In this document: piece by piece, positions 19,723 through 56,993 of the stretch
Numbering within the stretch: position 1 is the stretch's first letter
Layout of the letters: every line of letters begins with the position of its first letter
From: a virus
Virus record (IMG/VR): IMGVR_UViG_3300042298_003052
Span: 32,001 to 96,000 of that record
DNA: 64,000 bases
Reading direction: 5' to 3' (one strand)
The notes under the pieces: generated by a model
Database searches by the model: none
What the model was told of the DNA's origin: nothing
The model's input: the letters and a program-made list of their open reading frames with translations, nothing else
Program-made: the position numbers and the translations under genes

Positions 19723-20100
19723 ATGAAAAGATTAACAACGATCGCTCTTTTAACACTAATATTTGCGATCTTCCCACATCAATCTGTTAAGGCACAAGAA
19801 TCGTTTTTAAGATTAGATAACCACTGTGAAGGACAACTGTACTTTCACAAGACTGTTTGCAAAGAAGTTTACCAGGATTACATAATTTGGTACGTTCTCC
19901 AAGATAACACGCTAGTAGGTATTATTGTATTCGATGATGCTTATAGCCTAAATGTCATTGAATCAGGAGAAAACTCCTATGTCATATTCTCAAAGGAAAC
20001 CAGTCAAATCATTACACAATCAGAAAACGGTTTCAGTACGATCTCACCCTATCGTGAAACATTTGAATATATTTTAAGTGCGATCGCGTCAGTACAATAA
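19723..20100 (+). CDS. Hypothetical exported protein
   Basis: Sec signal peptide MKRLTTIALLTLIFAIFPHQSVKA/Q. Confidence 0.6.
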   Translation: MKRLTTIALLTLIFAIFPHQSVKAQESFLRLDNHCEGQLYFHKTVCKEVYQDYIIWYVLQDNTLVGIIVFDDAYSLNVIESGENSYVIFSKETSQIITQSENGFSTISPYRETFEYILSAIASVQ

Positions 20101-23100
20101 TCCGTTCGGTCGTTTCTGTTCAGTTAATACTTGGAATACTGCGGCTCTGACCTTCTGAGAAAGATCTCTTGCTGCCTTATTATCTTTCTCAGGATTATTA
20201 CCATCAGAGTTGATCGTGATGGGTACGGTAACAGACGTGCTACCCCCGCTAGGAGCCTTGATAGCAGGCGTACTAAACGAACCGCCTACGACACCCCCAT
20301 TCTTAAAGTTAAGCACGTTCTCGTCCACGCCATAGCGCTTAGCGATCGCTTGTTGCTGTCTGTTCAATACCCATTCTCCAGGTGATACCACAGCTAACCT
20401 AGCTTTTGGATTACCTTCGCGTTTTAATGCCTGTCCTATAGCTTCTGTAGAAGCTAACTTATCCAATGTTGACTGCGATCTTCCTATAACACCACCTTTT
20501 GCAAAGTTCTCTATACCTAAACCTGTATCAGTTTTTATAACACCACCATCTTTGAAGAACATCCCTAGTATCGTGGATAATAAAGACTGGAATACACCTC
20601 CTATACTGAATCCTCCTTTAGATACCGCTGTGCTACTAGAACCTGAAAATACACCCATCACAACAGAACCGAGTTGAGCCCCGCCGCGATCTGCTCCAGC
20701 TTCTATAGCACTTTGTATAGACTGAGCACCGTTTTCAAATGTAAGATCAAAACCACCTAAGTCAAATAAACCTTCAGAAATGGTACCTAAAGCGTTTGGT
20801 GTTTGTATGGATACAGCCGCTTGTTGTATTGCCTGAGCCCCTAATTGTAATGAAGATAAAACCATCTCACCACCTAATCTTAATGACGCTGAGGCTTGTT
20901 CTGCCCCTGTTGTTAACGTAACATCTTCTGTACTAGCACCGAATAAAGATTTTCCATATTCTGTTAGACTTGGATCTCGTATTTCACCAGTAGAAGGGAA
21001 TAAGTAAGAACTATAATCCATTGCGCCTTGTAACAGTGGATTATATCTAGGGGTCTGCATTAGTACATTAGGATCTTCTTCGGGCGATCGCGATCTGCTA
21101 GTTCCAAAAAGCATTTCTATAATACCGTTACCAGTATCACTAGATATTCCAGCAGCACCACCGAATATACCTGCAAACAGATTATTGGTTAGCATTTCTG
21201 CTGCCAAGTTCATCAGATTATCTATTAAACCGTTGACAAAATCGTTAAAGGCTTCTCCTACTGTTTTGGTACCTTTCATAAGATCGCTGAATAGTCCTTG
21301 AACTGGACCTCTTACGTTCTTTATGACATCGGGTAACATTGAGGCTTCTTGCCTTATCTGATCCATTTTGATGTCGTTTATCTTTGATAAGGATTCGCTC
21401 ATAGCTTTGAAACCCTCATCTGTGAGTTTCCCAGCATTTTTTAGTTTTTCTAATTCTAATATGGCATTTTGATAATCTAAGCGTTGCATATCCAACAAGA
21501 ATGGTAACCGCTCTTGTTTCATAGCTTCCGTTGGACTAGCACCAAATGCGCCTAGATAAGCGTCTTGTGCTCCCATTAAATCTGTTACTCCTCCAGGGCC
21601 AACAAGAGGATTTCTTGATTGTTCTATTTGATCGGCTCTAACTTGTAAAGCTTGTTCTAGCTCTAATGTTTGTAGTTTTAATTGGGCCGTTTCTTCTATT
21701 AATAAACGACTTCGTTCTCTAGTCTCCTCTGTTAGACCCTTACTACCTTCGTATAAATCGAATATTTGACTTTCTAAATCTTGTTGTATTTTAAGAGCTT
21801 CAATTTCATAAGACAGGTCTCTAGCGTTTCCTGCTTCCCCTGTTCTATTTAATAAAGGTGTAAGAGCTTCCACATTAGCAGCTCTTTGTTCTAACAAAAA
21901 TGATGAATTGTTAAGTCTTAATTGTTCAGTATTTCTATCAATATTGTAACCTAATATCTCTAACGCTAAAATTTGACGTTTAATAGATTCTGCTAATAGC
22001 TGGTCATAGCGATCTCTATCTAATCCGCTATTTAACTGTTCTTTTAAGCCAAATTGATACTCTTTCTCTTTTTGTATTATATCAGCAGCATCAGCTTGTT
22101 TTTCTAACTCTTCTGCCAGCGCCTGCTCTCCATCATTTCTTAACAATTCAGCCTGTTGTCTTAAATTTTCACCAGTTAGTTCAGTTAACTGATTAATAAA
22201 CTCCATATAGCGTCTTTCTTCTTCCATCTTGTATTCTTCTGAAATTTTTAGTAAAGCCTCTCCTTCCATAGCGGTTAGATCAGCTAAGTTCTTTCTAAGA
22301 ATATCTATAAGTGGTTGTTTCTGAGATATTATCTCTCTGAAACCCTCTTCAATTCGTCTTACATCTTCTTCTTTGGCTCCAGCCTCTATAAGTTGGTTGG
22401 GCATGGTTTCTAATAACTGTGTTACGGCATCTATGTCGTTTTGAGCATCTTCGATTTGTCGTTGTAATTCTATACGACGATCTTCTATATCTCTAGATGC
22501 CATATCGAGATCATATTCAAGTTGAATTTCTGGCGTCATCCTGAATTCTGGTATACTTTGATACTTGCGATCTCTGTCTTGTCTTTCTTGTTGTAGCTTA
22601 GCATCTTCCGTCCCTCTCTTAGCAGTTATTCCTTCTCGATTAACTTCAGAAAACATACTATCTATTTGAGCGTCGAATCTTTCATCTGCTAACGCTTTCA
22701 TTTGTTCAATCAATTTTATTTGATCGTTAGCGTTCTGTTGTAGCATGTTTACATACTTTTGATTTTCTGATAACAATTGGTTAGAACTTTGTGTATAACT
22801 ACTTACATCTAAAGTTGTAGCACTACTACTGGTTGTTGTCGGACGCGATCTGTTGATATAGCCTGTTACATTACTGATAGCTTGGGTAGTATATTTATTA
22901 TCTGGTCGTAATTCTTCTGCTCGTCTAAAATTGATCAATGCTGATTGGTAGTCCTTTTTCTCAGTCAGAGCATAACCTTCGCGCATGAATCTTTCAAATT
23001 GCTCTTTCTCTGACATGAGTTCATTCATACCGATGCCGCTATCACGAAGGAATTGTTCAGCTCGTTGACGGTGATCGCCTTGTCTGAATCTCGGCGCAGC

Positions 23101-26100
23101 GTTTCTTACGGTAGTTTGATTACTATCCTTACGATTCCAATAACTTTCTCCAGCTTGACCAGCTAATATTGCTGAATAGGCGTGTCGTATATCATGTTCA
23201 CCAGGTCTGAAACCGCGATCTAGCAAATATCTTTCTATAGCAGGCATTTGTTGAGCTATACTTTGTTGGGTATTGGTTCCATATTTACGTTGGTTATCAG
23301 GACTGAATTGGATCAAACCCTTATATAAATTATTATCACCTCCTCGTATGTTAGGGTTGAAAGATCCTGCTGATTCCCAAGACATAAGAGCGGCAAATTC
23401 TCTTGGATCTAATCCTAAACGTTGAGCTGCGGCTATCATAGCTTGTGCCCCAGCAGGGTCGCTTTGAACTCTTTCTGCGGTTCTTACCGTGCCACCCATA
23501 GGTATTCTACCCGGACCCATACTAGCCACTCTAGAGGCCACTGGGGCGTAGTTTCTAAACATCTCTACCCCAGACTGTTGAGGCGTGCTCTGAGCTGTTC
23601 TAGAGGCCGGTTGTGATATAGGATTAATATTGACATTTACGCCCTGTAAGTTACGTGCAACTCCACCACCGGCGTTCATAGCAGCTAACCACTGTTGAGC
23701 GTCTACGAACTGACCATTAACTTTCACCTTCATATCGAGATGGTGTTGTATTACTTCTCCAACGAGCTGTCCCATCGATACATTGGTGTTCTCTCCTATG
23801 CCTATACCTAAGGCTTTTTTAACAGATTCTAATTCTAAATGATTAAATTGCAAATCAATAGGTATGCCTTTAGCGTCCTGAGTCGTTATTCTCACTTGGA
23901 CAGCATTACCTCTATCACCCTTTTGTTCAGCTATGTCTATTACCCTAGCCGTACCAGAAAAAGGAGCTGCTACATCAGCACCTCTTCCTCCTCCTACTTT
24001 TGAATCCCAGTCTATACCAGCATGATATTCTTGTCGTCCATTTCGTGTTCTACCAGCCCTGAACGATTGTCCTTCAGTAGGTTTATAACTTACTAATGAC
24101 TCTATAGATTGCCCCATCAATGGAGAAGCTACGTTTCTACCATTTGTACCTTGACTACCAATAACACCTTGATCTATTTGAGGTATACTTAATGCAAATT
24201 GTTCATTTTGTCGAAGAGTATTGAATAATTGATTCATAACATCCATTTTCTGTTTTAAGAAATCAGATGTGCTTTTTAATTGTTCTCCTATGACATTGAT
24301 AAATCTTTCTAATATGTTCATCATGCCACTGAAGTGATCGGTTCTCAATTTACCCATAGTACGAGTTATCGTATTACTGGCATTAGCAACTTTGCGATCG
24401 TTTTCAAATTCCTTAAAACTGTGAGCGATTTCTTCAGTTTGTTGACCCACCTCTATCAACATATCTTCCAGTTGACGACCCATTTGCCATAATTGTTCTT
24501 CTAACTGTCTTTTAGTAGTTTCTAGTTCTGCTACTAATTGATCTGTTTCTAGTCCCGTTTGTTCAAATTTTTGTCGTACTTCTACTAAATTTGTGAGGGT
24601 CTTGCTTAAAGAAGAATCTTCTCCTATATTATCTATGGCAGCTTGTATATCAGCCGCCGTAGCATTCATTGCTAAATTAGCGTTTTCTAATGCTTTTATG
24701 TATTCAGGATCATAAGCAATAGTTTCTAGTTTTTGTAAAGAATCTCGATTTATAGCTATTTTTTCAGAGGTCATTTGTTGTTGAACAAGATTCTGTGTAC
24801 CTTCTAACAAACCTGAATTACCAGGAGCAACAGATCTCATCAAAAGAGCGTTCTTTTGTGCTGATCTCATTTCCAAATTATAATAGGCGTTTTCCATTTC
24901 TGCGTTAACAAGTCTAAATCCTCTAGCCAATAGATCAAGTCTGGTTACTGTATTTGCTATACCGGAATTTATTTTATCAATAAGCGATTTAGTAAGTTTT
25001 AAATCTGATTCAAGTGTTGCAATATTGCCCTGCAATGATTCTCTACGAATATTATCTTCTTCAGAATCTCCCAGTCTTGCTAGTTCTTCTTTTCTTAACT
25101 TAATAGCAGATTTGATATTCTCTTCTGATAACTGTAGGTTTGCTAGTTGTTTACCAACGGGGATATATAATTTTTCTCTTTCTGCTATCAGATTATTTAT
25201 CTGTTCGTTTAAGTCTCTTTGTTTTTCTACATCTTCCCTAGAGGTTCCTTGGAGTTCTTGTTGAGCACTCTGTAACCGCACATCCAGATCTATTATTTCT
25301 TGTAATTGTTGACCAGGTTTATTACCAGGATACAAAGTGGTCCTGGCCTCTTCATATATTTTACCTGAATAAGATTGCAGATCGTTTATAGCTATGTCTG
25401 CCTGTTCAGCTTTCACATCCTCCCATGTCCTGCTTAAATCTAAACCTATATTTTTCAAACCTCCTAAAGCTAAACCTATTGGGTCTGTATAATCTCGAAT
25501 GTCGTTTCCATCAGTTATGTTACCGATAAAACTTTGTGTTCCTCTTTCAAATATACGTGAAGCCTTATCCCCTATTAGACCACCAAAGAACGTATCTTCA
25601 AGTAAAGATTCTCCACTGATTAATCGTTCTAATCCTGAACTTATCCCTATACCATCTTTAAACGCTTCAAAAAACTTTTTAGCGGAATTACTTATATCGA
25701 CTATCTGTTTAATTCCTGTTACGGATTTCAATACGTTTCCGTATGATTCTCTGCTACCATCTATATTACTAACCGATTCAATAATATCTCCGACGTAACC
25801 TCCTAGTCCACCACCAGTAAATAATTCTTTGATGGCTGTTACACCTCCAGACTCCTTAAACACCTTAAAACTGGGTTGTTCATTAAACTCTTTTGTTTTT
25901 TGACGAGCATCTTCTAATGTTTTTGTATAATCTTCCCACGCTTTTTTATTTGAGTCAGCAAGATCCTTAGCACCTCCGGAAGCGTCTCCGAAACCTTTAC
26001 TGAAAATCTTAAACACGTCCGTGGCCACAGTTATGACAGCAAACCACGTTAAGAAACTCTTACCAAATGTTATTAATTCTTGCTTCATTCTAGTAAACAA

Positions 26101-29100
26101 ACCAGAAAACGATTCGCCAATCAACGCGATCGTTTGGTTCATTCCTGCAAATTTAACAAAAAATTTGGCTAGTTCTTGTACGAGGGTAGCACTTATTGTT
26201 ACCAACAAAGCGGTAAACACGACGCTAAGTGCTACAACATTTTCTCTTAGTATTTGAATACCTTTGGTTGCTATGTTAAGTCCGACAACTCGAATAGGGA
26301 TTGTGGTGTTACCATATCCTTGTTGGAATAACGTAATTTCATTATTTAATTTATTTATGGCCGTTTGGGCGCTTCGTGCGCTACCTGACACACCCATAGC
26401 GGTTTCAGCACTTAGTTGTTGTGCAAATTTAGGTAATAGATCTTCGGCCATAACTTCTCCGGCTTGCATCATTTTACCTAATTCTTGTGTAGTAACACCC
26501 ATAGCCCGCGCTGCTACAGATATAGACCCCGGTAAAGCTTCTGCTAATTGACCTCTTAGTTCTTCCGCAGAAACTACTGTCTTGTCCATCATCTGACTCA
26601 GTGCAGTGAAAGCTTGCTGTTGTTCCTCTGGAGTCATTTGATAAACTACAGCAGCTTGTGATATAGCTGAAAATATTTGACGAGTGCCTTCGCCTTCTAG
26701 TCGTGTACCTTGAGCACTAGCTCCTAATTGGGCGAAACCTTGCATACTTGATTTCAAGTCTCCTCCCAAACTTATAACTTTATTCCTTATCAAATCTATG
26801 TTTTTAGCCCCTTCGCTCGCTGATCCAGAGACAAAATTAATTGTCGTGGCCATGTTTTCGAGTTCTACAGCAGTTTGAAAAGCGGCTTCTTCAAATGAAA
26901 ACAATGTTCCTACGAGTGGTACTACAATATAATTGAAAAACAAAAACCCTTTGGTGATGCTCATCATAGCAGGAATATTTTGAGACAATCCCTCAAATAC
27001 TTCACCCAACGATCTACCTAATTTTGGTACAAACGTTGCCATGTTTTTCATAGATTCCATAGAATCCAACATGAATGCGTATGCAGGCCCTATAACAGGT
27101 ATTTCAGCTTCCGGGCGTTCTCCTGAAACACTGAATGGCATAAAAGATTCTTCTGGTGGTGTTTTTGCCCATTCTTTTATGTCATTTACGGTTTTTGTTT
27201 TAAGACTTTTTATACTTTCCCTAACATAGTTGATACCATCAGATATACCGTTAGATATACCTTCACTTATAAACCTACCTATCTTTATTGCCCATTCAGG
27301 AGGGCTTTTTATATCAAATGTGCTATGTGTTATATCTATAACAGCTTCTGCCATATTCATGGCGGCATTAGTCGCTTCTCTGCTACTATTATTTATGCCT
27401 ATTGCTATACCAGACCCTAACTCAGATCCTATATTTTTACTAGCGGGTAATATATTTTCTGTTTTCGTGTTGTTATAACGCTGATAAGATCTTATTATAT
27501 CCCGAGTATATTGATGAGAGAATCCATAGGCGTCTCTTTCTAGTTTATTGATGTAATGTGGATTTATATCAATACCTTGTTCTTTTGCAGATTTTTTTGC
27601 AAGTTCTACAGATCCTGCTATATTACGAGCATATTCGCGATCCGATTCTCTATTATATGACGGTGTTAAAAGAAGATTTCTTGAGTAAGGATCATTTATC
27701 TTTTGAAATCCAACTTGTGCGGCATGTCGTATCTCATGTACTATTGTATCCATTGCTTCAAACAAGGAAATTATATCTTCAGTTATATTAGAATATTTTT
27801 TGTTTACTGTTTCGTAAGCTAAATCTAACTCGTCGTTATAATCATTATAAATATCATCACTAGTGTTGTTATTTAAACGTTTATATACCTCTCTCACTTC
27901 ATCTTCAATAACTTTGAGACTAATAGGTATATCAAGACCTTTTATATCATGTAAGGATTCCAACGCCTCTTCGGTTTCATCATCCAAAAAGATTGTGTTG
28001 TATTCTGGTAAATAGGCTCCTCCTGCTCTAGTTCCTAATAATTGCATAGATGCATTTTTAGCTGTGGGCATCTCTTTTACTTCTACATCGGAAAGCGCTG
28101 CTATTTCTGTAACTAGTTCTTCAAACACTTTTCTTGCTTTAGGCGTAATGTCGTCTAAAGTATCTATAATTTCTCCTATATTTCTAGTTACTTCGTTAGA
28201 CATGTCTTCGTCAAATGAATCTTTTGTATTTCGATCAACGGACCATAACGGTTGTATTTTATTGTTTTTAACTTCTTCTGCTTTTACATCGATCGTGTTT
28301 GTATGTGTTTTTAACAAATAAGCTTGTTGATAAGATTGACTTTGACGTAAACGATCGAATCTCATAACAGGCCCAGAATTTCCGGGTTCTAAACCTTTTA
28401 TTGTCTCACCTAGTTCGTGTACTCGTGCGATAAGAGACGGGGTTATACCTTCTTCTAGATAACGAGTAAGTATTTCTCGTATCTCGTTAGATTCATCTAG
28501 ATAATGAGGACTGAAATGCCCTTTCACATTAGGTATAATAGCCTCTTTTTGTCCAGTAAATCTCTTTAACGGATCTCCTTCTCCAATTAAAGATATTACG
28601 TCTGATTTAATAGCTTGAAATGCTCCTAGTAAGGGAGTACCCATACTTAAAGCTTCTGAAATAATTCCTATATTTTTAAGTATTTCTTGGGCTTCTCTAA
28701 CTATAAAACCTCCAGCAGAATGTCCTACAAAACCTATTTCAACATCTGGACGTTCTTGTTTAACGGCATAGGCTTGTTTAGCAAGACGGAGAGCTTCTTC
28801 ATTAATACCCTTTCTAACAGCCTTCATGGGCATAATGATCGCATCCATTACGACCCTTGTCAAACCTACATCATTTAAGGTTCCAGAAACATCAAAGTTT
28901 TTATTCTCGAAAGGGATCGTGTGAGTCCCTTGAGGGATCATCGGTTTTAGTTTGTCTGTTATTTCGTTACTGATTCTACCTTTTGTGCCAGTAAAACCAG
29001 ATGATACAAATATAATCTTTTTAGCATCGGCAGGGATTTCATGAACGACAGGATGAATGTCAGAATCAGGAGGTTCAGTTAGAACTCGTCGAGCGTTAGA

Positions 29101-32100
29101 ACGTACATCTTCTTTGTACTTGGTGACAATAGTTTCATTGGGATAATTAACAATTCTTCCTACTGCCGTTCTTGCGCTCTGAACGGCTTCTGAAGTGTTC
29201 TCTAACTGACCGGCAAGAGTTAATGCCTCATTAATAGAATCTCTCAATATTGTCAACTCGTCTTTTATTACTGACATATCAAAGGCTTTTCTTAAATTGC
29301 CCTGATACATATCAGCCATCAAGTATAGATCTTCTGCAAGCTCTTTCAAAATTGAGCTTATGTTCAAAACTTTTTTAACTGCATCAGAATTTGATTTAAT
29401 ACCTTTAATCAAACCTGCTACAACCATTTTACCAAAATACTCAGTTACTTTGGAAGGACTTCTAGTTTGAAGACCCTTTGCCATCGGGTCAATAATTCCA
29501 GTCTCAACAAGACGGGTAGCCTCAGCTTTTAAAGCATTAAAACGATCGCTGAATCCGACAGGATATCCATCTATAGTTTCTTGACCTAAACTTCTAGTTA
29601 AATCAGGACGTTCTATTTCTCTAGTATTGATTTTCTCATTAGCTCTATTTTTGGCTTGAGTAGCCTGACCTTTAGCAGCTCGTGCTAAGTTTGTAAATGG
29701 TGTAGTAGCACGGTCCCCTAAAACTTTTTGTAAATCGTCTATAGCTTTCCAAGCTTCGTCCGCAGTTTTAATAATTTCAGCAGCAGCTATTTTTTGTTCT
29801 TCTCTAGAATATCGATTTTTTTTATTCTCCACTATACGACGAAGATCAGCAAAATCTTCACTGATCTTTTTAACCATTTTTTGGTAGTCAGGCGGCGGTT
29901 GAGCAGCAGTTAACTGACGAACTTGTTGTTGGGATAATGAAGGTAACTCAGCAAAGTTACTAAAATCTTGAATAATTTCAGCATCAATAATGTCAGCATC
30001 TTGAGATCGAATATCGTTTAGAAAACTAGCTAATTCTCTAAGTTTATTCTCTATCTTAACGATCTGAGATTTAAGATTTGCTAACTGATTAGGTGCTAAA
30101 GGTTTCATACGATCTTGTGGTGATATTGCGACGATCGCCTCATTAACCTCTGTTAATAATCTATTGACATATCCTTGATCATTACCAGTATCATCTCCGG
30201 CTAACAACTTTATTTTTTGAATGATCGATTCATCTGGTTCACTAGAAACTAGAGCCGTCTGTATACTAGTAATCATATCTTTGGCCGCACTTAATTTTTT
30301 ACGGGATCCTTCTATAAATTCATTGGCAGCAGGCTGTGCGCCAGATAGTAGTTTGCCAGCAGATTTAGTTAGTTGAGCAAGAGCTGTTGCGGCAGAGATA
30401 CTTTTTTGAGCTAATTCAGCAATTGCCGCCGCTCCATCTTCAATACCAAGTGCGGAAGCTCTAGCAATTTGTTCTGGACCAATATCAGATATCTTTTCGA
30501 TAATGGGAGCATTAGCATCAAGCGAATCAGGATCTCCAGGTACTCTACGCATTATTCTATTTACTGCCGCCACAAGACGTGTTTCTGCCGCGATGGCCAT
30601 CGCTTCACCTGTTGACTCAGCGATATTAGTAAGACCCTCGCCAACGCCTTGCAAGAAAGATATGGCCATTTCAGAACCAATTGCAACGGCTTCCTCCGTA
30701 GACACCGTTACAGATGATCTTACCTCTCTAAGATCCGGTAGAGGTGTAGGTGGAGGTGATATGAGATTAGCGACGTAAGATTGAGTACCTAGAGTTGCTT
30801 GAGATTGTCTTGTTTTACGCTGATTCCGTTCCGCGACACGCTGAGACGTTTCAGGATCTAATCTAAGATTAGGTTGTACCTGATTGTTTATAAAATCAAC
30901 TAGCGTTGATGATATCTTCGTAGGATCAGGTGCGCGATCGAATGTACGAAGACCACCCAGTTCACCACCCTCTTCATAACCTTGAGCGACTAAGGATTCT
31001 AAATCTAATCCTTCGATCAGTTCAAAACGTCCGAGTTCTTTAGCTATAACTCGTCTAATTCCTTCCCATGCTTTGCGAATACCTTCTTTACGATCTTCTT
31101 CAATCGCTTTGGCCCATTCTTCCAGAGCCTTTTCTTGTTCTTTTGCTGACAATTTTTCAAACTCAGGCATTTTATCGGGTTTGATTATACTACGTCCATA
31201 ATCGATAGGAACCACCTTTCCTTCGTCTGATACAAAAACATTACCTGGATGATAGTCTCCGTGGGTCACACCTTTTTCATGAAGTGCTCTCAACGATGCT
31301 CCAGCCTGTTTAGCATACGCTGATACGTCATCTTTTGTCATATCTTTATTAGCAAGGTAGTCTCGACCTTCTTGACCTGCTATTGCTCGTTGAATAATAA
31401 AATCATCGCCCGACGCAAGAACGTCTGGAGCGACACCTTTAGCAATTTCCATAGCCTGAGCCTCACTAGCCATGCTGACAGCATTTTTAGCTAGTTTGTA
31501 AACAGCATCTTTGTTAGCATTTATAAAAGCGATACCTTTTGCCCCCTGTCCTAATATATATGCCATATTAGGATCTATTTTAGCTGATGGCTTACCCATA
31601 TCCTCAAGGGTCTTATTCATACCGCTAAGACGTTCCATCCAAGGTTCTGTAGCAGGTTGAGTATATTTCTTGGTTTGCCACTTTGTTTTAGGTGCATCAG
31701 GATCTCTAGGTGTTGGTCCTCGCATCCCGGTGGGAGGACCAACACCCTCTTTATAAGCTTTATTAAATATATCTTGTATATTTATCCCTTCAAGCAAAGG
31801 CATTTTTCCTTCTTTTACTAGCTTTAAAAGAAGCTCCATTGTTTTTTCGGTTCCTTCAGGAACCTTTGCCAAAATTCGCATAAAAGCTTCTTCGATTCTT
31901 TCTGGTGCTCTTTCGGCATCAGCTTTTATTTGTTCTTTAGAAGCGTTTACCTTGGCAGCACCTAAATCGATAGTTTTCATGCTTCCATCTTCCATCACAA
32001 AGATGTTACCTGCATGATAATCTCCGTGAGTAACTTTTTTTTCGTGTAGAGACTTGAGAAGTTTAGCTGCACCTTCTACATATTGAATGATAACTCCTTG

Positions 32101-35100
32101 GGTAAGCTCACCTGATTTTTCAAGTTCTTTAACCATGCTCCCCATATCCTTACCTTTTAATACTTCTTGCACTAATCGGTTATTTCCTACGTCATATACT
32201 TGAGGAGCTAATTCTGGGCCTACTGCTCTAAGAGCTTCGGCCTCAGGCTGCATCATTTTCTTAGTTAAGAGATTTAATGGATAGGGAGCATCCTTAAATT
32301 GTTCATAATCAACCCATTCGGGAGCACCTATTTTATTCATCTTAAAACCCTTTTCACGGGCTTGATCAGTAAAAATGATTCCGTTTACACCTTCACCGAG
32401 TACTTGGGCCTCGGCAGGGTTTAGATAACCGGATACAGCGGTTCCTCGTTTGTGTTGTTTGTTTAATTGAGCTAAATATTCCATCTGCTCAGGTTTAAAT
32501 ATAGGTGATTTCTCAGGAAAGTCAGGAGCCACCCCAAAGACTGAGTAGAATTTTTCCACCATATCAATGAGATTATCTGGATCTATTTCGTTACCGTTCT
32601 TCAATGATTGAATTAACGTGTCATATATCGATAAAAACGCTTCTACATCTTGCTTTGCTTGACCTGTTAGATTTTTCATTGATTTTCTCAGATCAGCTTT
32701 TAATTCATCATAGTTATACTCTATGTCAGACTTTTCTTGAGAATCGCCATAAGTTTTTCTTAATCGTCCCTCGGGAGTAACAAAAGTGTATTTGCCTGCT
32801 TTTTGTTCTTCGACAGCAGTGGGATCTCCAATCAAGACTCCTAATGTTCGTCGCATTGACTCTTGTAATCCTACTTGTTCTCCAGGACCGGAGTACATCA
32901 GATTATAAGCACGAACATTAGAAATCGAACGTTGTGTAGCCTGCTTTGCCAAAATGGGATCTATAACTTCTGGAGAAACAATCCGTTGTCTTACCTCATT
33001 AGGCTTAGTACCGCCATCGTATATTTCTCTTAAGATATCAGAGTTAAGTTTATTAGCGATCGCTTTAATTGTACCAGTAGGTAAAACAAATACTTCTTCT
33101 ATACTGGCTAACTCTTTAGTGATAGTATCTTTGTATTCGTCTATACGAGCCTTTATTTCCGTTTCATCTAGACCTAGATCTTTACTTTCTTTTTTAATTT
33201 TTTGTTGTTCCTCTATTTGAGATTTATCTGAGTACCTGTCAGATAAATTAATCAGAAATTCTGCATCGGCTGTTTTAGCAAAAGTTTTAATGTTTTCTAG
33301 TGTGATTTGCGACTCCGTTTTTTCTAATCTTAAGAACTTAGCTACTTCTTCTTGAACTTTAGGATTTTGTATAAATTGTCCTAAACTGTGTCCTGCGCCA
33401 GCACCAGGGATTATGGTTGTTGCTTTACCTGGACGCATAATACCTGACAAATTTTTAATAGTCCCTTCAGGAAGACCATAATCAGTCTCCATCTTTTTCA
33501 TTTCTTTTTCAAGCATTTTTTGATGTTGTTCTGACAATTTACTCATGTCAGAATAACGTTCACCAAATGATGCCAAAAATATAGGATCCATGTCACCTAC
33601 AAAGGCTTTAAAATTTTGAAGAGATGCTGTATTGGTTAAACCGTAAGTTCCCATTGTTAACCCAACACCTTTAGTGTTTTTAGCACCTCCTCGTTCAGCT
33701 ATAGCAGTGGCTTCTTCAGCAGCAAATGTACCACCAGATGTTCCAGCAAAAACGAATTTTTTACCGGGGTATTTTTTCTCGTAAGCCCTTCGTGTAGCTT
33801 CGAGTTTGATAGCGTCAGGGTTATAACCCGCATCTACGGCCATAGAAATAAGTTTTTCAAATTGAGAAGCTTCGTCACTCATTAATTGTTTCTCTAGATC
33901 GCTTCCAGGTGTTACTTGTCCTAATGAACGTAGTAAATCTAATAAAATACTTTTAAATTGTCTAATGGTTTGACCGGATTGTTTGTCATTAGAAAACTTA
34001 TTAGGAACAGGAACGGTAGCAACCTGTTCACCTAATAACTCTTTAAGAAGTACATTCGCGAAATAGGTATTGTCCCCAGGTCTTTCGTAATCATTACCAG
34101 GGATACCACCAGCGATTAATGCAATTGTTTCTTTGTCGTTGATACCTTCAATATCTGGGACATCAATCACTTCAGCTAATTGTTTGGATAGCTCCATAGA
34201 TTGAGCCAGCATTACACGTTTTTGAATACGATACGGTTGGGCGATTGCTCTAACGCCCACACCTGCCACTCTTCTACCACCTTCTGCTACCTCTTCCCAC
34301 GGTGGACGGATGTATTCGTCAATTCTAGATTTGGCACGTTTAGGATCGTTGTAAACTCGAACATCTTCTCCTACACCTACTAACAAATCTTCAAAAGTTT
34401 TTATGTTTCTAACTAACTTTCTGGGATCAAGAAAACTATCTAGTTTGCGTCCCAAATATGCTATGTCATCGCCTACTTCCTTTAAACCTCCTCTGTACCC
34501 AAAAGCTTCGGCTGTTACCATGGCAAGTCCTTTTGTTCGATTATATCCATATCGACCAAAATTATATCCAACTGTTTCGGCATCTGATCCTGTTTTACCC
34601 TCTATATATTTTTGAGCGCCTTTTGCAAAATCGTATGAGAGTGTTTGTCCCATACCTTCCACTGCGCCAGTGATAAACGTTTCAAAAGCCCTAGCTGGTA
34701 AACCAACAATTTTATCGACTAAAGTTTCTTTACTACTTGTATGGATAATTTTTGACATCTTCATCGGCATGTCGTCTTGAGACTTAATGTTCTGTTTGAC
34801 TGACATCGACAAAGCTGATATAGAATTGGCTAAATTCTCATTTGCTATTGTTAGACCTTTATTTTGTAGATGCAATTCTTGTAAAGAATTGTCCAACCGT
34901 AATAAAGATCTGCTTGGTAAGTAAGAATCTTCGTATGAGATTTCAGACGAAGACGTTTCTGTAGTGATTTTTACTTTCTTATCTGTTATACCATCGAATT
35001 GGTTTTTGAAATTACTCAATTCTTCTACATTAGTTTTTGGTGTTAACGGATTATCACCAAAATATTTGTTAACTTCTTTAAGGTGTTCACGCTTTCTCTC

Positions 35101-35307
35101 AATATGTTTATTTAATTTGGCTAAAGGTTCATGATCTACTGTTGGTTTTAATGTTTCTAGTTTAGTTTTACTTGTTATTCCTTTAATATTTCCTTCTATA
35201 TCCTTACCAGCTCGACTCGCAAGTTTTTGAATATCGGCAAGCTGTTTTGTAAACTTGGTATCGTCAAGTCCTAACTCTAAAATTAAACTCCCAAGAGTTG
35301 TTGCCAT
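20089..35307 (-). CDS. Giant multidomain tape measure protein (5072 aa)
   Basis: MATTLGSLILELGLD N-terminus; tape measure core (FTALSQMMDK..AEELRGQLAEALPG, ~26.3-26.9 kb); FAKGGV/FKNGGVV C-terminus; lies downstream of the tail chaperones; embedded enzyme motifs are described in findings. Confidence 0.9.
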   Translation of the reverse strand: MATTLGSLILELGLDDTKFTKQLADIQKLASRAGKDIEGNIKGITSKTKLETLKPTVDHEPLAKLNKHIERKREHLKEVNKYFGDNPLTPKTNVEELSNFKNQFDGITDKKVKITTETSSSEISYEDSYLPSRSLLRLDNSLQELHLQNKGLTIANENLANSISALSMSVKQNIKSQDDMPMKMSKIIHTSSKETLVDKIVGLPARAFETFITGAVEGMGQTLSYDFAKGAQKYIEGKTGSDAETVGYNFGRYGYNRTKGLAMVTAEAFGYRGGLKEVGDDIAYLGRKLDSFLDPRKLVRNIKTFEDLLVGVGEDVRVYNDPKRAKSRIDEYIRPPWEEVAEGGRRVAGVGVRAIAQPYRIQKRVMLAQSMELSKQLAEVIDVPDIEGINDKETIALIAGGIPGNDYERPGDNTYFANVLLKELLGEQVATVPVPNKFSNDKQSGQTIRQFKSILLDLLRSLGQVTPGSDLEKQLMSDEASQFEKLISMAVDAGYNPDAIKLEATRRAYEKKYPGKKFVFAGTSGGTFAAEEATAIAERGGAKNTKGVGLTMGTYGLTNTASLQNFKAFVGDMDPIFLASFGERYSDMSKLSEQHQKMLEKEMKKMETDYGLPEGTIKNLSGIMRPGKATTIIPGAGAGHSLGQFIQNPKVQEEVAKFLRLEKTESQITLENIKTFAKTADAEFLINLSDRYSDKSQIEEQQKIKKESKDLGLDETEIKARIDEYKDTITKELASIEEVFVLPTGTIKAIANKLNSDILREIYDGGTKPNEVRQRIVSPEVIDPILAKQATQRSISNVRAYNLMYSGPGEQVGLQESMRRTLGVLIGDPTAVEEQKAGKYTFVTPEGRLRKTYGDSQEKSDIEYNYDELKADLRKSMKNLTGQAKQDVEAFLSIYDTLIQSLKNGNEIDPDNLIDMVEKFYSVFGVAPDFPEKSPIFKPEQMEYLAQLNKQHKRGTAVSGYLNPAEAQVLGEGVNGIIFTDQAREKGFKMNKIGAPEWVDYEQFKDAPYPLNLLTKKMMQPEAEALRAVGPELAPQVYDVGNNRLVQEVLKGKDMGSMVKELEKSGELTQGVIIQYVEGAAKLLKSLHEKKVTHGDYHAGNIFVMEDGSMKTIDLGAAKVNASKEQIKADAERAPERIEEAFMRILAKVPEGTEKTMELLLKLVKEGKMPLLEGINIQDIFNKAYKEGVGPPTGMRGPTPRDPDAPKTKWQTKKYTQPATEPWMERLSGMNKTLEDMGKPSAKIDPNMAYILGQGAKGIAFINANKDAVYKLAKNAVSMASEAQAMEIAKGVAPDVLASGDDFIIQRAIAGQEGRDYLANKDMTKDDVSAYAKQAGASLRALHEKGVTHGDYHPGNVFVSDEGKVVPIDYGRSIIKPDKMPEFEKLSAKEQEKALEEWAKAIEEDRKEGIRKAWEGIRRVIAKELGRFELIEGLDLESLVAQGYEEGGELGGLRTFDRAPDPTKISSTLVDFINNQVQPNLRLDPETSQRVAERNQRKTRQSQATLGTQSYVANLISPPPTPLPDLREVRSSVTVSTEEAVAIGSEMAISFLQGVGEGLTNIAESTGEAMAIAAETRLVAAVNRIMRRVPGDPDSLDANAPIIEKISDIGPEQIARASALGIEDGAAAIAELAQKSISAATALAQLTKSAGKLLSGAQPAANEFIEGSRKKLSAAKDMITSIQTALVSSEPDESIIQKIKLLAGDDTGNDQGYVNRLLTEVNEAIVAISPQDRMKPLAPNQLANLKSQIVKIENKLRELASFLNDIRSQDADIIDAEIIQDFSNFAELPSLSQQQVRQLTAAQPPPDYQKMVKKISEDFADLRRIVENKKNRYSREEQKIAAAEIIKTADEAWKAIDDLQKVLGDRATTPFTNLARAAKGQATQAKNRANEKINTREIERPDLTRSLGQETIDGYPVGFSDRFNALKAEATRLVETGIIDPMAKGLQTRSPSKVTEYFGKMVVAGLIKGIKSNSDAVKKVLNISSILKELAEDLYLMADMYQGNLRKAFDMSVIKDELTILRDSINEALTLAGQLENTSEAVQSARTAVGRIVNYPNETIVTKYKEDVRSNARRVLTEPPDSDIHPVVHEIPADAKKIIFVSSGFTGTKGRISNEITDKLKPMIPQGTHTIPFENKNFDVSGTLNDVGLTRVVMDAIIMPMKAVRKGINEEALRLAKQAYAVKQERPDVEIGFVGHSAGGFIVREAQEILKNIGIISEALSMGTPLLGAFQAIKSDVISLIGEGDPLKRFTGQKEAIIPNVKGHFSPHYLDESNEIREILTRYLEEGITPSLIARVHELGETIKGLEPGNSGPVMRFDRLRQSQSYQQAYLLKTHTNTIDVKAEEVKNNKIQPLWSVDRNTKDSFDEDMSNEVTRNIGEIIDTLDDITPKARKVFEELVTEIAALSDVEVKEMPTAKNASMQLLGTRAGGAYLPEYNTIFLDDETEEALESLHDIKGLDIPISLKVIEDEVREVYKRLNNNTSDDIYNDYNDELDLAYETVNKKYSNITEDIISLFEAMDTIVHEIRHAAQVGFQKINDPYSRNLLLTPSYNRESDREYARNIAGSVELAKKSAKEQGIDINPHYINKLERDAYGFSHQYTRDIIRSYQRYNNTKTENILPASKNIGSELGSGIAIGINNSSREATNAAMNMAEAVIDITHSTFDIKSPPEWAIKIGRFISEGISNGISDGINYVRESIKSLKTKTVNDIKEWAKTPPEESFMPFSVSGERPEAEIPVIGPAYAFMLDSMESMKNMATFVPKLGRSLGEVFEGLSQNIPAMMSITKGFLFFNYIVVPLVGTLFSFEEAAFQTAVELENMATTINFVSGSASEGAKNIDLIRNKVISLGGDLKSSMQGFAQLGASAQGTRLEGEGTRQIFSAISQAAVVYQMTPEEQQQAFTALSQMMDKTVVSAEELRGQLAEALPGSISVAARAMGVTTQELGKMMQAGEVMAEDLLPKFAQQLSAETAMGVSGSARSAQTAINKLNNEITLFQQGYGNTTIPIRVVGLNIATKGIQILRENVVALSVVFTALLVTISATLVQELAKFFVKFAGMNQTIALIGESFSGLFTRMKQELITFGKSFLTWFAVITVATDVFKIFSKGFGDASGGAKDLADSNKKAWEDYTKTLEDARQKTKEFNEQPSFKVFKESGGVTAIKELFTGGGLGGYVGDIIESVSNIDGSRESYGNVLKSVTGIKQIVDISNSAKKFFEAFKDGIGISSGLERLISGESLLEDTFFGGLIGDKASRIFERGTQSFIGNITDGNDIRDYTDPIGLALGGLKNIGLDLSRTWEDVKAEQADIAINDLQSYSGKIYEEARTTLYPGNKPGQQLQEIIDLDVRLQSAQQELQGTSREDVEKQRDLNEQINNLIAEREKLYIPVGKQLANLQLSEENIKSAIKLRKEELARLGDSEEDNIRRESLQGNIATLESDLKLTKSLIDKINSGIANTVTRLDLLARGFRLVNAEMENAYYNLEMRSAQKNALLMRSVAPGNSGLLEGTQNLVQQQMTSEKIAINRDSLQKLETIAYDPEYIKALENANLAMNATAADIQAAIDNIGEDSSLSKTLTNLVEVRQKFEQTGLETDQLVAELETTKRQLEEQLWQMGRQLEDMLIEVGQQTEEIAHSFKEFENDRKVANASNTITRTMGKLRTDHFSGMMNILERFINVIGEQLKSTSDFLKQKMDVMNQLFNTLRQNEQFALSIPQIDQGVIGSQGTNGRNVASPLMGQSIESLVSYKPTEGQSFRAGRTRNGRQEYHAGIDWDSKVGGGRGADVAAPFSGTARVIDIAEQKGDRGNAVQVRITTQDAKGIPIDLQFNHLELESVKKALGIGIGENTNVSMGQLVGEVIQHHLDMKVKVNGQFVDAQQWLAAMNAGGGVARNLQGVNVNINPISQPASRTAQSTPQQSGVEMFRNYAPVASRVASMGPGRIPMGGTVRTAERVQSDPAGAQAMIAAAQRLGLDPREFAALMSWESAGSFNPNIRGGDNNLYKGLIQFSPDNQRKYGTNTQQSIAQQMPAIERYLLDRGFRPGEHDIRHAYSAILAGQAGESYWNRKDSNQTTVRNAAPRFRQGDHRQRAEQFLRDSGIGMNELMSEKEQFERFMREGYALTEKKDYQSALINFRRAEELRPDNKYTTQAISNVTGYINRSRPTTTSSSATTLDVSSYTQSSNQLLSENQKYVNMLQQNANDQIKLIEQMKALADERFDAQIDSMFSEVNREGITAKRGTEDAKLQQERQDRDRKYQSIPEFRMTPEIQLEYDLDMASRDIEDRRIELQRQIEDAQNDIDAVTQLLETMPNQLIEAGAKEEDVRRIEEGFREIISQKQPLIDILRKNLADLTAMEGEALLKISEEYKMEEERRYMEFINQLTELTGENLRQQAELLRNDGEQALAEELEKQADAADIIQKEKEYQFGLKEQLNSGLDRDRYDQLLAESIKRQILALEILGYNIDRNTEQLRLNNSSFLLEQRAANVEALTPLLNRTGEAGNARDLSYEIEALKIQQDLESQIFDLYEGSKGLTEETRERSRLLIEETAQLKLQTLELEQALQVRADQIEQSRNPLVGPGGVTDLMGAQDAYLGAFGASPTEAMKQERLPFLLDMQRLDYQNAILELEKLKNAGKLTDEGFKAMSESLSKINDIKMDQIRQEASMLPDVIKNVRGPVQGLFSDLMKGTKTVGEAFNDFVNGLIDNLMNLAAEMLTNNLFAGIFGGAAGISSDTGNGIIEMLFGTSRSRSPEEDPNVLMQTPRYNPLLQGAMDYSSYLFPSTGEIRDPSLTEYGKSLFGASTEDVTLTTGAEQASASLRLGGEMVLSSLQLGAQAIQQAAVSIQTPNALGTISEGLFDLGGFDLTFENGAQSIQSAIEAGADRGGAQLGSVVMGVFSGSSSTAVSKGGFSIGGVFQSLLSTILGMFFKDGGVIKTDTGLGIENFAKGGVIGRSQSTLDKLASTEAIGQALKREGNPKARLAVVSPGEWVLNRQQQAIAKRYGVDENVLNFKNGGVVGGSFSTPAIKAPSGGSTSVTVPITINSDGNNPEKDNKAARDLSQKVRAAVFQVLTEQKRPNGLLY

Positions 35308-35330: not shown

Positions 35331-35374
35331 ATAAAGTGTTTGGTTCAATTAATCACACGAACCAAACACTTTAT
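35331..35374. promoter_or_regulatory. Perfect 16-bp stem hairpin just upstream of the tape measure gene
   Basis: ATAAAGTGTTTGGTTC-N12-GAACCAAACACTTTAT. Confidence 0.6.
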
Positions 35375-35413: not shown

Positions 35414-35806
35414 TTATTGAGGTTTGACTTCAGGAACGACTTTAGGTTGTGGTTTTTTGACTTCTTTTCTCTTAAGGATAGAAGTAAAGTCTTCTCCAGC
35501 TAAAGCAGCTTTCACCGTTACAACGCACTTACCGCCTTCTATTGATGTCGTAACAGATTCGACACCCTCCAAGGTTACACCAGCGTGTTTAACGATGTCG
35601 CCTTCTTCATCATGAGAAAGAACAAAACGGCTATAAGGATTATAAACTTCTGATCCCAGTTCCGCTTTGAAAACGACATAAGGAACGCCGTCAACGTCTT
35701 CTTTTTCAACACTTGTTACATTATCAAGTACAGATTCTCCGTGACGAATCTGTTTACCGTCATCAGTATGGACAAGTTCAAATTTGCTTTGTAACAGATC
35801 AGCCAT
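35414..35806 (-). CDS. Hypothetical protein with internal duplication
   Basis: Start at MADLLQSKF (35806), overlapping the upstream stop; two related ~45-aa units. Confidence 0.65.
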   Translation of the reverse strand: MADLLQSKFELVHTDDGKQIRHGESVLDNVTSVEKEDVDGVPYVVFKAELGSEVYNPYSRFVLSHDEEGDIVKHAGVTLEGVESVTTSIEGGKCVVTVKAALAGEDFTSILKRKEVKKPQPKVVPEVKPQ

Positions 35807-36215
35807 CTTTGATATACCTCTCGCGTATCTCAGGAATAGTTTGTAGGAAAGCGGCAACAGCAGGAGGTATTCGCTTATCCTTAAGCAACCGATAGACAAT
35901 AGATCTCGTCTTACTACTAAATACAGTCTTCTCCGTGCCTTGTTTCATAAGATCAGGAAAAGGCACGATGTCTTCTGGCTTTATTTGTTTAGAGTCCTTA
36001 CCTGCAAAACCATTAAACAGACCAGACCAACCGATCGCATGAGTTATGGATTTTACATTGATGTCTTGTCTATACGCCTCCTCATAGAATTTAAGCGTCT
36101 CAAATATCAACGCTGGATTCTCATCACCAAAATGTTCGTAATCTAGACGGGGGTCGGTACAACCGAGATATTGGAGTCTGAGATATATGTCTCCCCACTC
36201 AATAATAGCGATTCC
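35799..36215 (-). CDS. Tail assembly chaperone C-terminal (T) segment, reached by -1 frameshift
   Basis: The -1 frame is open from the slippery GGGGGAA (36212-36218) and reads GIAIIEWGDIYLRLQYLG...; it has no ATG near its 5' end. Confidence 0.75.
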   Translation of the reverse strand, partial: GIAIIEWGDIYLRLQYLGCTDPRLDYEHFGDENPALIFETLKFYEEAYRQDINVKSITHAIGWSGLFNGFAGKDSKQIKPEDIVPFPDLMKQGTEKTVFSSKTRSIVYRLLKDKRIPPAVAAFLQTIPEIRERYIKDG

Positions 36216-37003: not shown

Positions 37004-37079
37004 TGGGAAAAATTAGAAACTTTATAGACAATAATATATTGCTCTTTTACTGTAAATAATAAAAATAGCGAAACACAGG

Positions 37080-37334: not shown

Positions 37335-37345
37335 CTCAGCGCATT

Positions 37346-37384
37346 AAAAACGTCCTCCACCAGTATAAACCAGTGAAGGACGTT
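37346..37384 (-). terminator. Rho-independent terminator after the tail tube gene
   Basis: AACGTCCTTCAC / GTGGAGGACGTT stem plus a T-tract on the minus strand. Confidence 0.65.
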
Positions 37385-37402
37385 CTGTATATAACCTAAC
37401 GC

Positions 37403-38359
37403 TTACGCGCCCAGAGGAGGCGTATAGACGTTAGACAGAGGATCGAACGCGCCAGTAGGTGCAGTATACTTGAAGGAGGAACCTTGGAACTGAAGGTCAG
37501 CCTGCACTGTAATAAGGTCTTGTACAGGTGAACTTTGATTACCAGAGGTCAAAATGGCAGCTCCAGCAAATTCTTCACCAAAGGGGCGTCTGAGGGTAGC
37601 GTAAATTTCAGAACCAAAGAAGCGATCGTCGTAAAGAATCTTCATGAGAAGATCAGCACCGGGATCGCCAATAATTCTTTGGAAAGTGAATGACATGGTT
37701 CTGTTACTACCTGTAGTAACCATTTCCATACCACTACCACTGAGGAAGTTGGCTGCGTCAACAGTCTTGGGCTGAGAAGACGGAGAAGCGTCAGTGGCAC
37801 CAGCGATGTAAACGGTAGCTGTAGTTTTAGCTGTATGGTTTTCAACAGCTAAAACAGTAGTAGGTTGAACTTGTAGACGTGTAGCGCCAGCAGGAGCAAA
37901 ATCGCTTACCGTTACACTATACGCACCATTGTTAAATGTCAGTTTCTCACCAGGATAGATATTGGTGGGAAGGGTCGTAACAGGTAACACTTCACTACCG
38001 ACAGTCAGCACAGAGGCGTCTACAGTACCAGCAGTGGAAGCAGGAATAGCTGCTGACAACGGGTACAAAAGAGTTACCGCTGTAGCACCAGTCACCGCTG
38101 TGCTAGTACGAGCTTCAACACCGTTTGCAAAACGAATCTTGGAAAAAGCAGGAATAGTGGCAGTAGCAGCAAGTGTCAACGAAGTGGCACCTTTAGCTGT
38201 AGGAGCTGCCGAAGTGGTAACGTTGATCGCAGCAGTAGCCGCTCCTACAGTAACAGTATATTCCGTAGGTACCCGAGTACCTTTAGGAAGAAGCACAAAC
38301 CGAAGTTCTGTAAATACGCTAGTGCCTCGTTCGCTAGCGTAGTTGATAATTTGTCCCAT
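37403..38359 (-). CDS. Major tail tube protein
   Basis: Ala/Thr-rich insertion, beta-rich core, strong AGGAGG RBS, terminator downstream, canonical position. Confidence 0.7.
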   Translation of the reverse strand: MGQIINYASERGTSVFTELRFVLLPKGTRVPTEYTVTVGAATAAINVTTSAAPTAKGATSLTLAATATIPAFSKIRFANGVEARTSTAVTGATAVTLLYPLSAAIPASTAGTVDASVLTVGSEVLPVTTLPTNIYPGEKLTFNNGAYSVTVSDFAPAGATRLQVQPTTVLAVENHTAKTTATVYIAGATDASPSSQPKTVDAANFLSGSGMEMVTTGSNRTMSFTFQRIIGDPGADLLMKILYDDRFFGSEIYATLRRPFGEEFAGAAILTSGNQSSPVQDLITVQADLQFQGSSFKYTAPTGAFDPLSNVYTPPLGA

Positions 38360-38372
38360 GTAGAGTTTCCTC

Positions 38373-39181: not shown

Positions 39182-39182
39182 G

Positions 39183-40333: not shown

Positions 40334-40336
40334 CTG

Positions 40337-56991: not shown

Positions 56992-56993
56992 AA

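Follow-up and report, generated by a model that had tools for sequence, protein, structure and literature searches.

Why would a phage tape measure protein carry two kinase-like domains, and in which compartment would these domains work? The question is raised by a stretch of viral DNA of 64,000 nucleotides (the window), corresponding to bases 32001-96000 of the IMG/VR record IMGVR_UViG_3300042298_003052, which is 139,448 bp long, bears direct terminal repeats and is estimated to be complete. An earlier note, made from the letters of the window, had pointed to tandem protein-kinase-like domains inside a virion structural protein, and had supposed that such kinases enter the host together with the genome. 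The analysis described here confirmed that the tandem kinase-like domains, K1 and K2, of this protein (P0001) are real and far beyond chance.

Two kinase-like domains and their place in the superfamily

Both domains lie in the N-terminal half of the product of a single giant open reading frame (ORF), in the following positions of the window:

20089..35307, minus strand: single ORF of 5,072 aa (P0001), a giant tape measure protein in which enzyme domains are embedded
31717..32445, minus strand: kinase domain K1, residues 955-1197 (motifs, Pfam, AlphaFold model)
31600..31716, minus strand: proline-rich linker between K1 and K2, residues 1198-1236 (pLDDT below 50 at residues 237-261 of the tandem model)
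30943..31599, minus strand: kinase domain K2, residues 1237-1455 (motifs, Pfam, tandem model)

Each of the motifs named in the earlier note was recovered on the minus strand of this one ORF, and the domains do lie in the interval 31000..32410 given there, their true extent (30943-31599 and 31717-32445) being slightly larger. In K1, these motifs are LGEGVNG at residue 970 (window 32400-32380), EAEAL at 1022, HGDYHAGN at 1094 (32028-32005) and IDLG at 1113, and in K2 they are LGQGAKG at 1252 (31554-31534), EAQAM at 1282, HGDYHPGN at 1349 and IDYG at 1368 (31206-31195). The catalytic set, composed of the Gly loop, beta3 Lys, helix-C Glu, the HGDxHxGN loop and the Asp of DxG, is complete in both copies (K1: 970-976, K989, E1022, H1094-G-D1096, N1101 and D1114 of DLG; K2: 1252-1258, K1271, E1282, H1349-G-D1351, N1356 and D1369 of DYG). 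The two beta3 lysines fall in a conserved column of the subfamily alignment A1 (see below) and of alignment A4. K1 and K2 are 27% identical across 226 columns (E 6e-23).

Near-identical copies of this 5,072-aa protein were found on two other contigs; they differ from it by 1 and 6 substitutions, respectively, and none of these falls within the kinases. Two other proteins, P0002 and P0003, are collinear homologues of P0001 over nearly their whole length and have one kinase each. Because the protein is thus present on three contigs and collinear homologues exist, a chance ORF or an assembly artefact was rejected.

Profile searches assigned the tandem region to kinases. With a 600-aa segment containing both copies, Pfam Pkinase gave 60.3 bits against a cut-off of 31.7 (E 2.6e-16, two matched stretches), followed by ABC1 (53.9 bits), RIO1 (44.2), APH (38.8) and Kdo/WaaP (32.7), and the PHROGs families found for this region, phrog_3297 and phrog_2361, are both kinase families. 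A single-sequence search of the PDB returned weak matches (E ~4e-4). The subfamily profile made from A1 matched 2,398 distinct kinase sequences there at E<=1e-3 (best 8e-18), with twitchin, greatwall, TP53RK (human Bud32) and PknE at the top (E 8e-18 to 4e-15), and these matches span the region from the N-lobe to DFG only.

Structure prediction led to the same superfamily. The AlphaFold2 model of the tandem has a mean pLDDT of 73.8, with a poor K1 N-lobe and block means of 77-96 for K2 (model residues 271-490); K1 modelled alone reached pLDDT 84.4 and pTM 0.82. Both K1 and K2 models adopt the bilobal kinase fold. When the K1 model was compared with 48,161 PDB representatives by VIA-align, 308 of them had Z of at least 8, kinases being found throughout among the matches listed. 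RIO2 (Z 15.9, rmsd 3.3, 175 aligned residues), RIO1 (15.4) and Bud32 (14.7) were followed by the kinase of a lanthipeptide synthetase (14.1), WaaP (13.9), ordinary kinases (13.7 or less) and OspG (12.3). The K2 model matched PRPK (Z 15.2, rmsd 3.5, 181 aligned), Bud32 (15.0), RIO2 (14.7) and RIO1 (14.6), with Pim1 and PknB at about 13.5. Motifs, profile score and fold all place K1 and K2 in the protein kinase-like superfamily (the PF00069 clan), of which they are minimal and, as judged from their sequences, probably catalytically competent members.

Assignment to a particular family is a separate problem. The activation segment with an APE motif and the helical substrate-binding C-lobe (subdomains VIII-XI) that mark Hanks-type kinases are absent from K1 and K2: matches to Pfam Pkinase end close to position 154 of the 263 in the profile, no APE equivalent was seen in an alignment with canonical standalone kinases, and three helices, of about 70 residues, are all that follows DxG in the K1 model. 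The best NCBIfam model is Bud32 (TIGR03724), with 61.2 bits against a cut-off of 125, and the remaining Bud32 models of that collection score 30-47 bits against cut-offs of 174-372; because the Bud32 score is so far under its cut-off, K1 and K2 fit no named equivalog. RIO1 (PF01163) exceeds its cut-off of 22 with a score summed over the two copies, and Pkinase and ABC1 score higher on the same residues.

The earlier note had read the motifs as a RIO/Bud32/APH-like signature. This agrees well with the best folds, which are RIO2, RIO1 and Bud32/PRPK (Z 14.5-15.9), and with the profiles, as RIO1, ABC1, APH and Kdo match in Pfam and Bud32 tops the NCBIfam list, albeit under the cut-off. The lead of RIO and Bud32 over other folds is just 1-2 Z units, and for this reason we term the fold 'minimal, RIO/Bud32-like' and claim no membership. 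What K1 and K2 share with RIO1, RIO2 and Bud32/PRPK is a minimal bilobal fold of ~200-240 residues, in which the C-lobe is short and helical and the activation segment is missing. On the other hand, the fold alignments are only 14-23% identical, K1 and K2 have no Kae1 or ribosome context, and they carry a DFG-like D[LYF]G after the catalytic loop. The loop itself, HGD[YF]HxGN, is presumably also unlike that of RIO and Bud32.

The carrier protein, its relatives and its gene neighbourhood

The following features of the carrier and of the genes before it were recognized in the window:

26326..26886, minus strand: tape measure core domain, residues ~2808-2994 (TMP_3, TIGR02675, PHROGs)
26167..26244, minus strand: membrane-helix-like hydrophobic segment, residues 3022-3047 (Kyte-Doolittle)
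23677..24045, minus strand: M23-like metallopeptidase region, residues ~3755-3877, with HAGID at 3762 (phrog_7767, E 1.3e-4)
23260..23439, minus strand: lytic-transglycosylase-like region, residues ~3957-4016 (SLT, PDB 9udh, PHROGs)
28624..28812, minus strand: lipase/esterase-like region (weak), GHSAG at residue 2195
27724..27738, minus strand: HEIRH (HExxH) motif, possible zincin-like peptidase (weak), residue 2524
35414..36110, minus strand: two small ORFs, 35414..35899 and 35799..36110, placed where tail assembly chaperone genes would be expected (position and overlap)
37403..38359, minus strand: candidate major tail (tube) protein (phrog_820, E 2.8e-5; Phage_tail_2, E 0.0016, below cut-off)

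What had been called a virion structural protein in the earlier note can be specified as a tape measure protein. The core domain scores 83.8 bits with TMP_3 (PF20155; cut-off 41) and 49 bits with TIGR02675 (tape_meas_nterm; cut-off 21.35), more than 15 PHROG tape-measure families match P0001 down to E 5e-37, and a tblastn search with the core matched 1,186 phage records, in which the features hit, among the matches listed, are annotated as tape measure. In a Kyte-Doolittle scan (19-residue window, mean above 1.8), segment 3022-3047 is the sole strongly hydrophobic stretch of the protein. At the site corresponding to the M23-like region, Peptidase_M23 of Pfam is above its cut-off in P0012 and P0003. 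The transglycosylase-like region gives 18.1 bits with Pfam SLT, under the cut-off of 21.3, and matches a lytic transglycosidase in the PDB (9udh, E 1.4e-4) as well as phrog_196 and phrog_4928; P0012 reaches 104.9 bits with SLT at the corresponding place.

The modules closer to the N terminus are less easily named. The lipase-like region matches DUF676 (E 0.004-0.007, below cut-off) and fungal lipases of the PDB (E 0.03), and its GHSAG motif is kept in P0002 and P0003; the HEIRH segment has a sub-threshold match to the putative metallopeptidase family DUF6782 (E 0.023). A permissive Pfam scan of the remaining parts of P0001 yielded sub-threshold hints only (DUF676, Tle1-like, DUF6782), and the ESM Atlas gave no usable match for residues 1-700 and 2050-2700. 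Residues 1-660 (window 33208-35307, minus strand) are the best-conserved portion of the N-terminal half, being 45-48% identical to P0002 and P0003, as against 32-34% for the kinase. No family was found for them in Pfam, PHROGs, NCBIfam or the ESM Atlas, and a GTSGG/GTSAG motif within them is conserved across P0001, P0002 and P0003.

On the best reading, the C-terminal 2,300 residues of P0001 are a normal long tape measure, made up of the core, a single membrane-type helix, coiled coils and wall hydrolases of M23- and SLT-like type. The 2,700 residues on the N-terminal side form a variable series of enzyme modules, in the order conserved N-terminal region, K1, K2, lipase-like region and HExxH segment.

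Relatives were sought with the tandem kinase region as query in phmmer, run exhaustively against 1.84 billion representatives. This returned 1,259 proteins at E<=1e-3, of which just three, all of them giant, reached E<=1e-10. Eleven of the best 150 are longer than 2,000 aa, and five of these, all from metagenomes, share the tape measure core: P0002 (4,389 aa), P0003 (3,887), P0004 (5,767), P0012 (3,613) and P0103 (5,269). The search for kinase-bearing tape measure proteins that the earlier note had proposed thus brought five further clusters among the best 150 of the 1,259 proteins. TMP_3 together with Pkinase, ABC1 or Kdo was confirmed by Pfam in P0002, P0003 and P0012, and P0004 is named a tape measure domain-containing protein by one source. 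P0006 and P0022, two other candidates, were rejected as relatives, as they are arrays of several canonical kinase domains with no TMP domain.

In all six tape measure proteins the kinase, present in one or two copies, is N-terminal of the core. M23 or SLT matches, or an M23-like motif, were found in four of the six, in each case C-terminal of the core. The eight embedded kinase domains of these proteins, aligned in A1, are ~25-35% identical and all have the beta3 Lys; the helix-C Glu, the catalytic Asp, the Asn and the DFG Asp are invariant over the eight and over all 10 domains aligned. Degraded motifs do occur in some relatives, namely SGDFNFGN and DFQ in P0103, and HTDMQNQN and DLE in copy A of P0004. 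The best partner of K2 is K1 (93 bits; next 65), and the best partners of K1 are the kinases of P0002 and P0003 (107 and 102 bits); K2 is therefore most simply explained as a lineage-specific duplicate of K1, as far as sequence scores can tell.

HExxH motifs are present in three of the six proteins (one in P0001, two in P0004, three in P0103), and P0002, P0003 and P0012 have the kinase and no HExxH. The segment of about residues 2341-2609 of P0001, which contains HEIRH (window 27480-28290, minus strand), has no counterpart in P0002 or P0003. Since the motif is found in half of the family and the segment is unmatched in the two collinear homologues, the N-terminal half appears to act as a set of cassettes, and the distribution of HExxH looks like cassette-like gain and loss within the tape measure gene.

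Outside these six proteins, little was found. A tblastn search of 50,697 GenBank phage records with the kinase region gave nothing at E<=1e-5; at E<=1 it gave 22 records, all of them free cyanophage kinases or unannotated contigs, with the match under a tape measure feature in 0 of the 22. No kinase-bearing tape measure protein was found among the 50,697 records, nor did megablast with window 36000-48000 find a match in them. IMG/VR scans with the kinase region and with P0002 returned no relatives. In a word-index search, the query stood alone among proteins of 2,789-8,876 aa, and shorter proteins gave none at E<=0.001. Full-text searches of the literature found no paper describing a kinase inside a tape measure protein; in the accessible parts of the reports on MinS1 (PMC8876498) and Blastoid (PMC3853047) and of a review of jumbo phages (PMC7824862), kinase and tape measure are separate genes or topics.

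Small proteins resembling the embedded domain were also seen. A metagenome scan with A4 confirmed 2 of 267 pattern matches, both in small ORFs (208 and 223 aa) and not in giant ones; these, on contigs L002 (9803-10429, plus strand) and L003 (139-810, plus strand), are 33-34% identical to K1 around the catalytic loop. Two further short proteins, P0009 (221 aa; a RIO1-family kinase of a filamentous cyanobacterium, according to one source) and P0135 (201 aa), have in common short C-terminal helices that end in an aromatic-Tyr/Gly motif. By their sequences, all four look like a free form of the embedded kinase domain.

The P0001 gene sits within a late tail module. The order candidate tube gene, two small ORFs, P0001 would fit a tape measure gene, the tube assignment being weak. 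The ORF at 35414..35899 has no family match. The two small ORFs overlap by ~100 nt (window 35799-35899, minus strand), the frame of the second being +1 relative to that of the first. No slippery heptamer was identified, and the stop codon of the first ORF is overlapped by an ATG of the second. A contractile tail is disfavoured, as the complete 139,448-bp genome has no match to the sheath family PF04984, which is not proof of a non-contractile tail.

Several other observations concern the same region. In the 106-nt gap that separates the upstream small ORF from the start codon of the tape measure gene there is a hairpin with a perfect 17-bp stem (window 35331-35374, minus strand); the 113-nt stretch containing it folds with -28.2 kcal/mol (z -5.05; 0 of 200 shuffles fold as well), and the hairpin may be a terminator or attenuator that keeps expression of the tape measure protein below that of the tube protein. 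Directly downstream of the P0001 ORF, ~800 nt (window 19293-20088) contain no minus-strand ORF of at least 60 aa; two more minus-strand genes (164 and 359 aa) and then a strand switch follow, and no distal tail or tail tip genes of the usual kind were seen adjoining the tape measure gene. Of the substitutions in the contig variants, the six of P0156 all lie inside a 56-residue stretch (residues 3715-3770; window 24000-24165, minus strand), where they surround the M23-like HAGID motif and include the residue beside its His; variation may be concentrated locally at this place, or the stretch may be a patch exchanged by recombination. Farther away, four tRNA genes (Thr-TGT, Lys-TTT, Met-CAT, Arg-TCT; window 56425-58220) lie beside a PhoH-like gene (54864-56183), and a 422-aa ORF (50183-51451, minus strand) has an N-terminal Hva1_TUDOR domain (32.6 bits; cut-off 24.1) and matches DUF3140 weakly.

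Where the kinases would act

We favour, with moderate confidence, the view that P0001 combines a tape measure scaffold with the role of a polyvalent effector, and that its kinases exit the tail last and act in the host cytoplasm. The argument for delivery combines the polarity of the tape measure protein in phage 80alpha, the constant N-terminal position of the kinases, their need for ATP and the concept of polyvalent proteins. A kinase requires ATP, which neither the virion nor the periplasm contains; kinase action is placed in the cytoplasm because ATP is found only there. In phage 80alpha, three tape measure N-termini are located at the neck, adjoining the tail completion protein and the DNA end, and the C-termini bind Tal at the tip, the protein being thought to be ejected as a pilot with the DNA, according to the available part of that report (PMC11661146). 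By analogy, during infection the protein would exit the tail C-terminus first, and its wall hydrolases would work in the cell envelope, with the hydrophobic part contributing to passage of the membrane. The N-terminal modules, adjoining the DNA end, would pass last and largely unfolded, and would refold in the cytoplasm. There, the kinases could phosphorylate host proteins, or P0001 itself, ahead of any phage gene expression.

Several points weigh against this view. The lumen of a siphovirus tail tube is ~4 nm wide, and three folded kinase domains abreast would not fit; both storage and passage must be unfolded, because folded kinase trimers exceed such a tube. Some tape measure proteins are cut during assembly. 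RIO and Bud32 proteins are mostly ATPases, conformational switches or members of fixed complexes, and not broad protein kinases, and the substrate-binding lobe is absent from K1 and K2. Matches of the lipase-like and HExxH modules are all sub-threshold. The phage is uncultured and known as a metagenomic genome alone. Finally, the kinase-bearing tape measure family is very rare, so that the generality of any such mechanism must be low.

A wider proposal can be put forward more tentatively. The tape measure protein might be a general vehicle for cytoplasmic effectors, with exchangeable N-terminal cassettes (two kinases, lipase-like modules, a zincin) held unfolded in the tail lumen just ahead of the DNA end, threaded through a channel formed by the C-terminal half, refolded and perhaps cut by the HExxH module, and phosphorylating host proteins of defence, transcription or translation within seconds and ahead of phage gene expression. 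If this were true, the domain order would mirror the compartments crossed: first wall hydrolases, then the membrane helix, and the ATP-dependent enzymes last.

The most serious competing explanation, which we regard as unlikely, is that the kinases act late and in the producer cell only, or that the N-terminal half is cut off before assembly, so that nothing enzymatic is delivered. The location of the gene in a late tail module would suit such a role, as would the size of folded kinase trimers, too large for a tail tube, and an HExxH motif between the kinases and the core offers a possible cutter. Cleavage before packaging has been discussed for polyvalent proteins, for example DdrB of P1, in the accessible text on these proteins (Iyer, Burroughs, Anand, de Souza and Aravind 2017, PMC5512222), and fragmentation of the 80alpha tape measure protein is noted in the available part of the study of that phage (PMC11661146). 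However, self-cleavage by the HExxH module cannot be general, because P0002, P0003 and P0012 have the kinase without it. Moreover, the kinase keeps its position N-terminal of the core in all six proteins, and this constant fused position points to a function connected with the tape measure rather than to a free late enzyme; the related standalone kinases found in this analysis come from cellular or unclassified contigs.

It is also conceivable, if rather improbable, that K1 and K2 have no host target and work for the tape measure itself, as ATPases or ATP-driven switches involved, for example, in its solubility, its register during tail assembly or the timing of assembly through autophosphorylation. 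The nearest folds, RIO1, RIO2 and Bud32/PRPK, act mainly as ATPases or conformational switches, the substrate-binding C-lobe is absent, and the proteins have either one or two kinase copies, all of which would be compatible with this idea. An assembly function is harder to reconcile with the fact that most tape measure proteins, even very long ones, have no kinase domain: the core accompanies just 5 of the best 150 kinase matches, and none of the 22 phage records at E<=1 has its match under a tape measure feature. The adjoining lipase-like and HExxH modules, weak as they are, also resemble effectors and not assembly aids.

Very unlikely, in our opinion, are kinases of small molecules or of the envelope (lipid, sugar or LPS core kinases of the Kdo/WaaP, APH and ABC1/UbiB types) that would help passage or block superinfection. 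The Pfam scores of ABC1 (53.9 bits), APH (38.8) and Kdo/WaaP (32.7), WaaP among the top folds (Z 13.9) and a lipase-like module nearby speak for them, and the HGDxHxGN loop, with His at +2, is presumably typical of APH/ABC1/SrkA-type enzymes. Against this, the subfamily profile puts protein kinases first, Pkinase has the highest Pfam score, and the RIO and Bud32 folds stand above WaaP, though Z gaps of less than about 1-2 are small.

Least probable of all is that the domains are inactive relics or pseudokinase scaffolds, useful to a very long tape measure only for spacing or binding, as the degraded motifs of P0103 and of copy A of P0004 might suggest, since the P0001 copies retain every canonical catalytic residue and the invariance of Glu, Asp, Asn and Asp over 10 aligned domains at ~25-35% identity indicates selection on catalysis or nucleotide binding.

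Comparison with known systems

Tape measure proteins are tail rulers, some of which have wall-degrading motifs; at 5,072 aa, P0001 is presumably several times longer than familiar examples. The tape measure proteins of mycobacteriophage TM4 and of T5 (Pb2) are said to contain peptidoglycan hydrolase motifs. P0001 is like them in that the tail ruler would double as a carrier of ejected enzymes, having M23- and SLT-like parts, but their cargo targets the wall and needs no ATP, whereas P0001 adds ATP-dependent kinase domains, for which a cytoplasm is the only workable place. Virion-delivered protein-modifying enzymes are known from phage heads, T4 Alt and the N4 RNA polymerase being examples. If the proposed delivery is true, a kinase-carrying tape measure protein would unite the role of ruler and wall enzyme with that of virion-delivered cytoplasmic enzymes; cytoplasmic effectors would have a second cargo hold in the tail lumen, and an ejected tape measure protein would arrive in the cytoplasm in a refoldable state. 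The six proteins are a small set in which one may ask how globular enzymes fit into and cross a 4-nm tube, whether pre-made kinases are turned against host defences before gene expression, and what relation tail length has to a tape measure half made of enzymes. Should the domains turn out to be inactive, or to be cut away, what is left is an unusual mosaic protein.

Gp0.7 of T7 is expressed early from the entering genome, as a free protein that is not in the virion. Between it and K1 or K2 there is a functional analogy only: it is a phage Ser/Thr kinase that phosphorylates host proteins early, and it is cited as a precedent in the available text of PMC5512222. OspG, a type III effector of Shigella, is likewise a very small kinase, with most of the C-lobe gone, that reaches its target cell through a narrow conduit and is active there. 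In the K1 fold list it aligns over 153 of 169 residues (Z 12.3, rmsd 3.3), below many ordinary kinases. It differs in being a free bacterial effector of eukaryotic cells and in its dependence on ubiquitin/E2 binding, as described in the accessible part of PMC3585378.

The closest likeness is to the polyvalent proteins of phages, which, as far as the available sections of PMC5512222 describe them, contain several effector domains, among them a reduced Ser/Thr/Tyr-type kinase and zincin peptidases, and are predicted to be co-injected with the DNA, after which they would modify proteins of the host. Features in common are a reduced kinase inside a very large multi-enzyme phage protein, a gene among virion genes, and HExxH zincins with wall-degrading domains in the same polypeptide; the kinases of P0001 do sit in a large multi-enzyme protein encoded among virion genes. 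The kinase clade described there, reported from (pro)phages of Verrucomicrobia-Chlamydia and Bacteroidetes, has an insert between the conserved His and Asp, whereas HGD is contiguous in P0001. As to the residues of that clade, K1 has Glu in its loop (LGEG) and K2 has Gln, and a Gln is present in both copies (Q1047, Q1306), positions that may or may not correspond to those meant for the clade. The carriers differ as well: tape measure proteins are mentioned 0 times in that paper, and its carriers are mostly MuF- or portal-linked head proteins. A small family of tape measure proteins with kinases is unusual, and the polyvalent-protein kinase is its nearest published concept; the two apparently intact kinase domains of P0001 suggest that a tail ruler may also deliver enzymes into the host.

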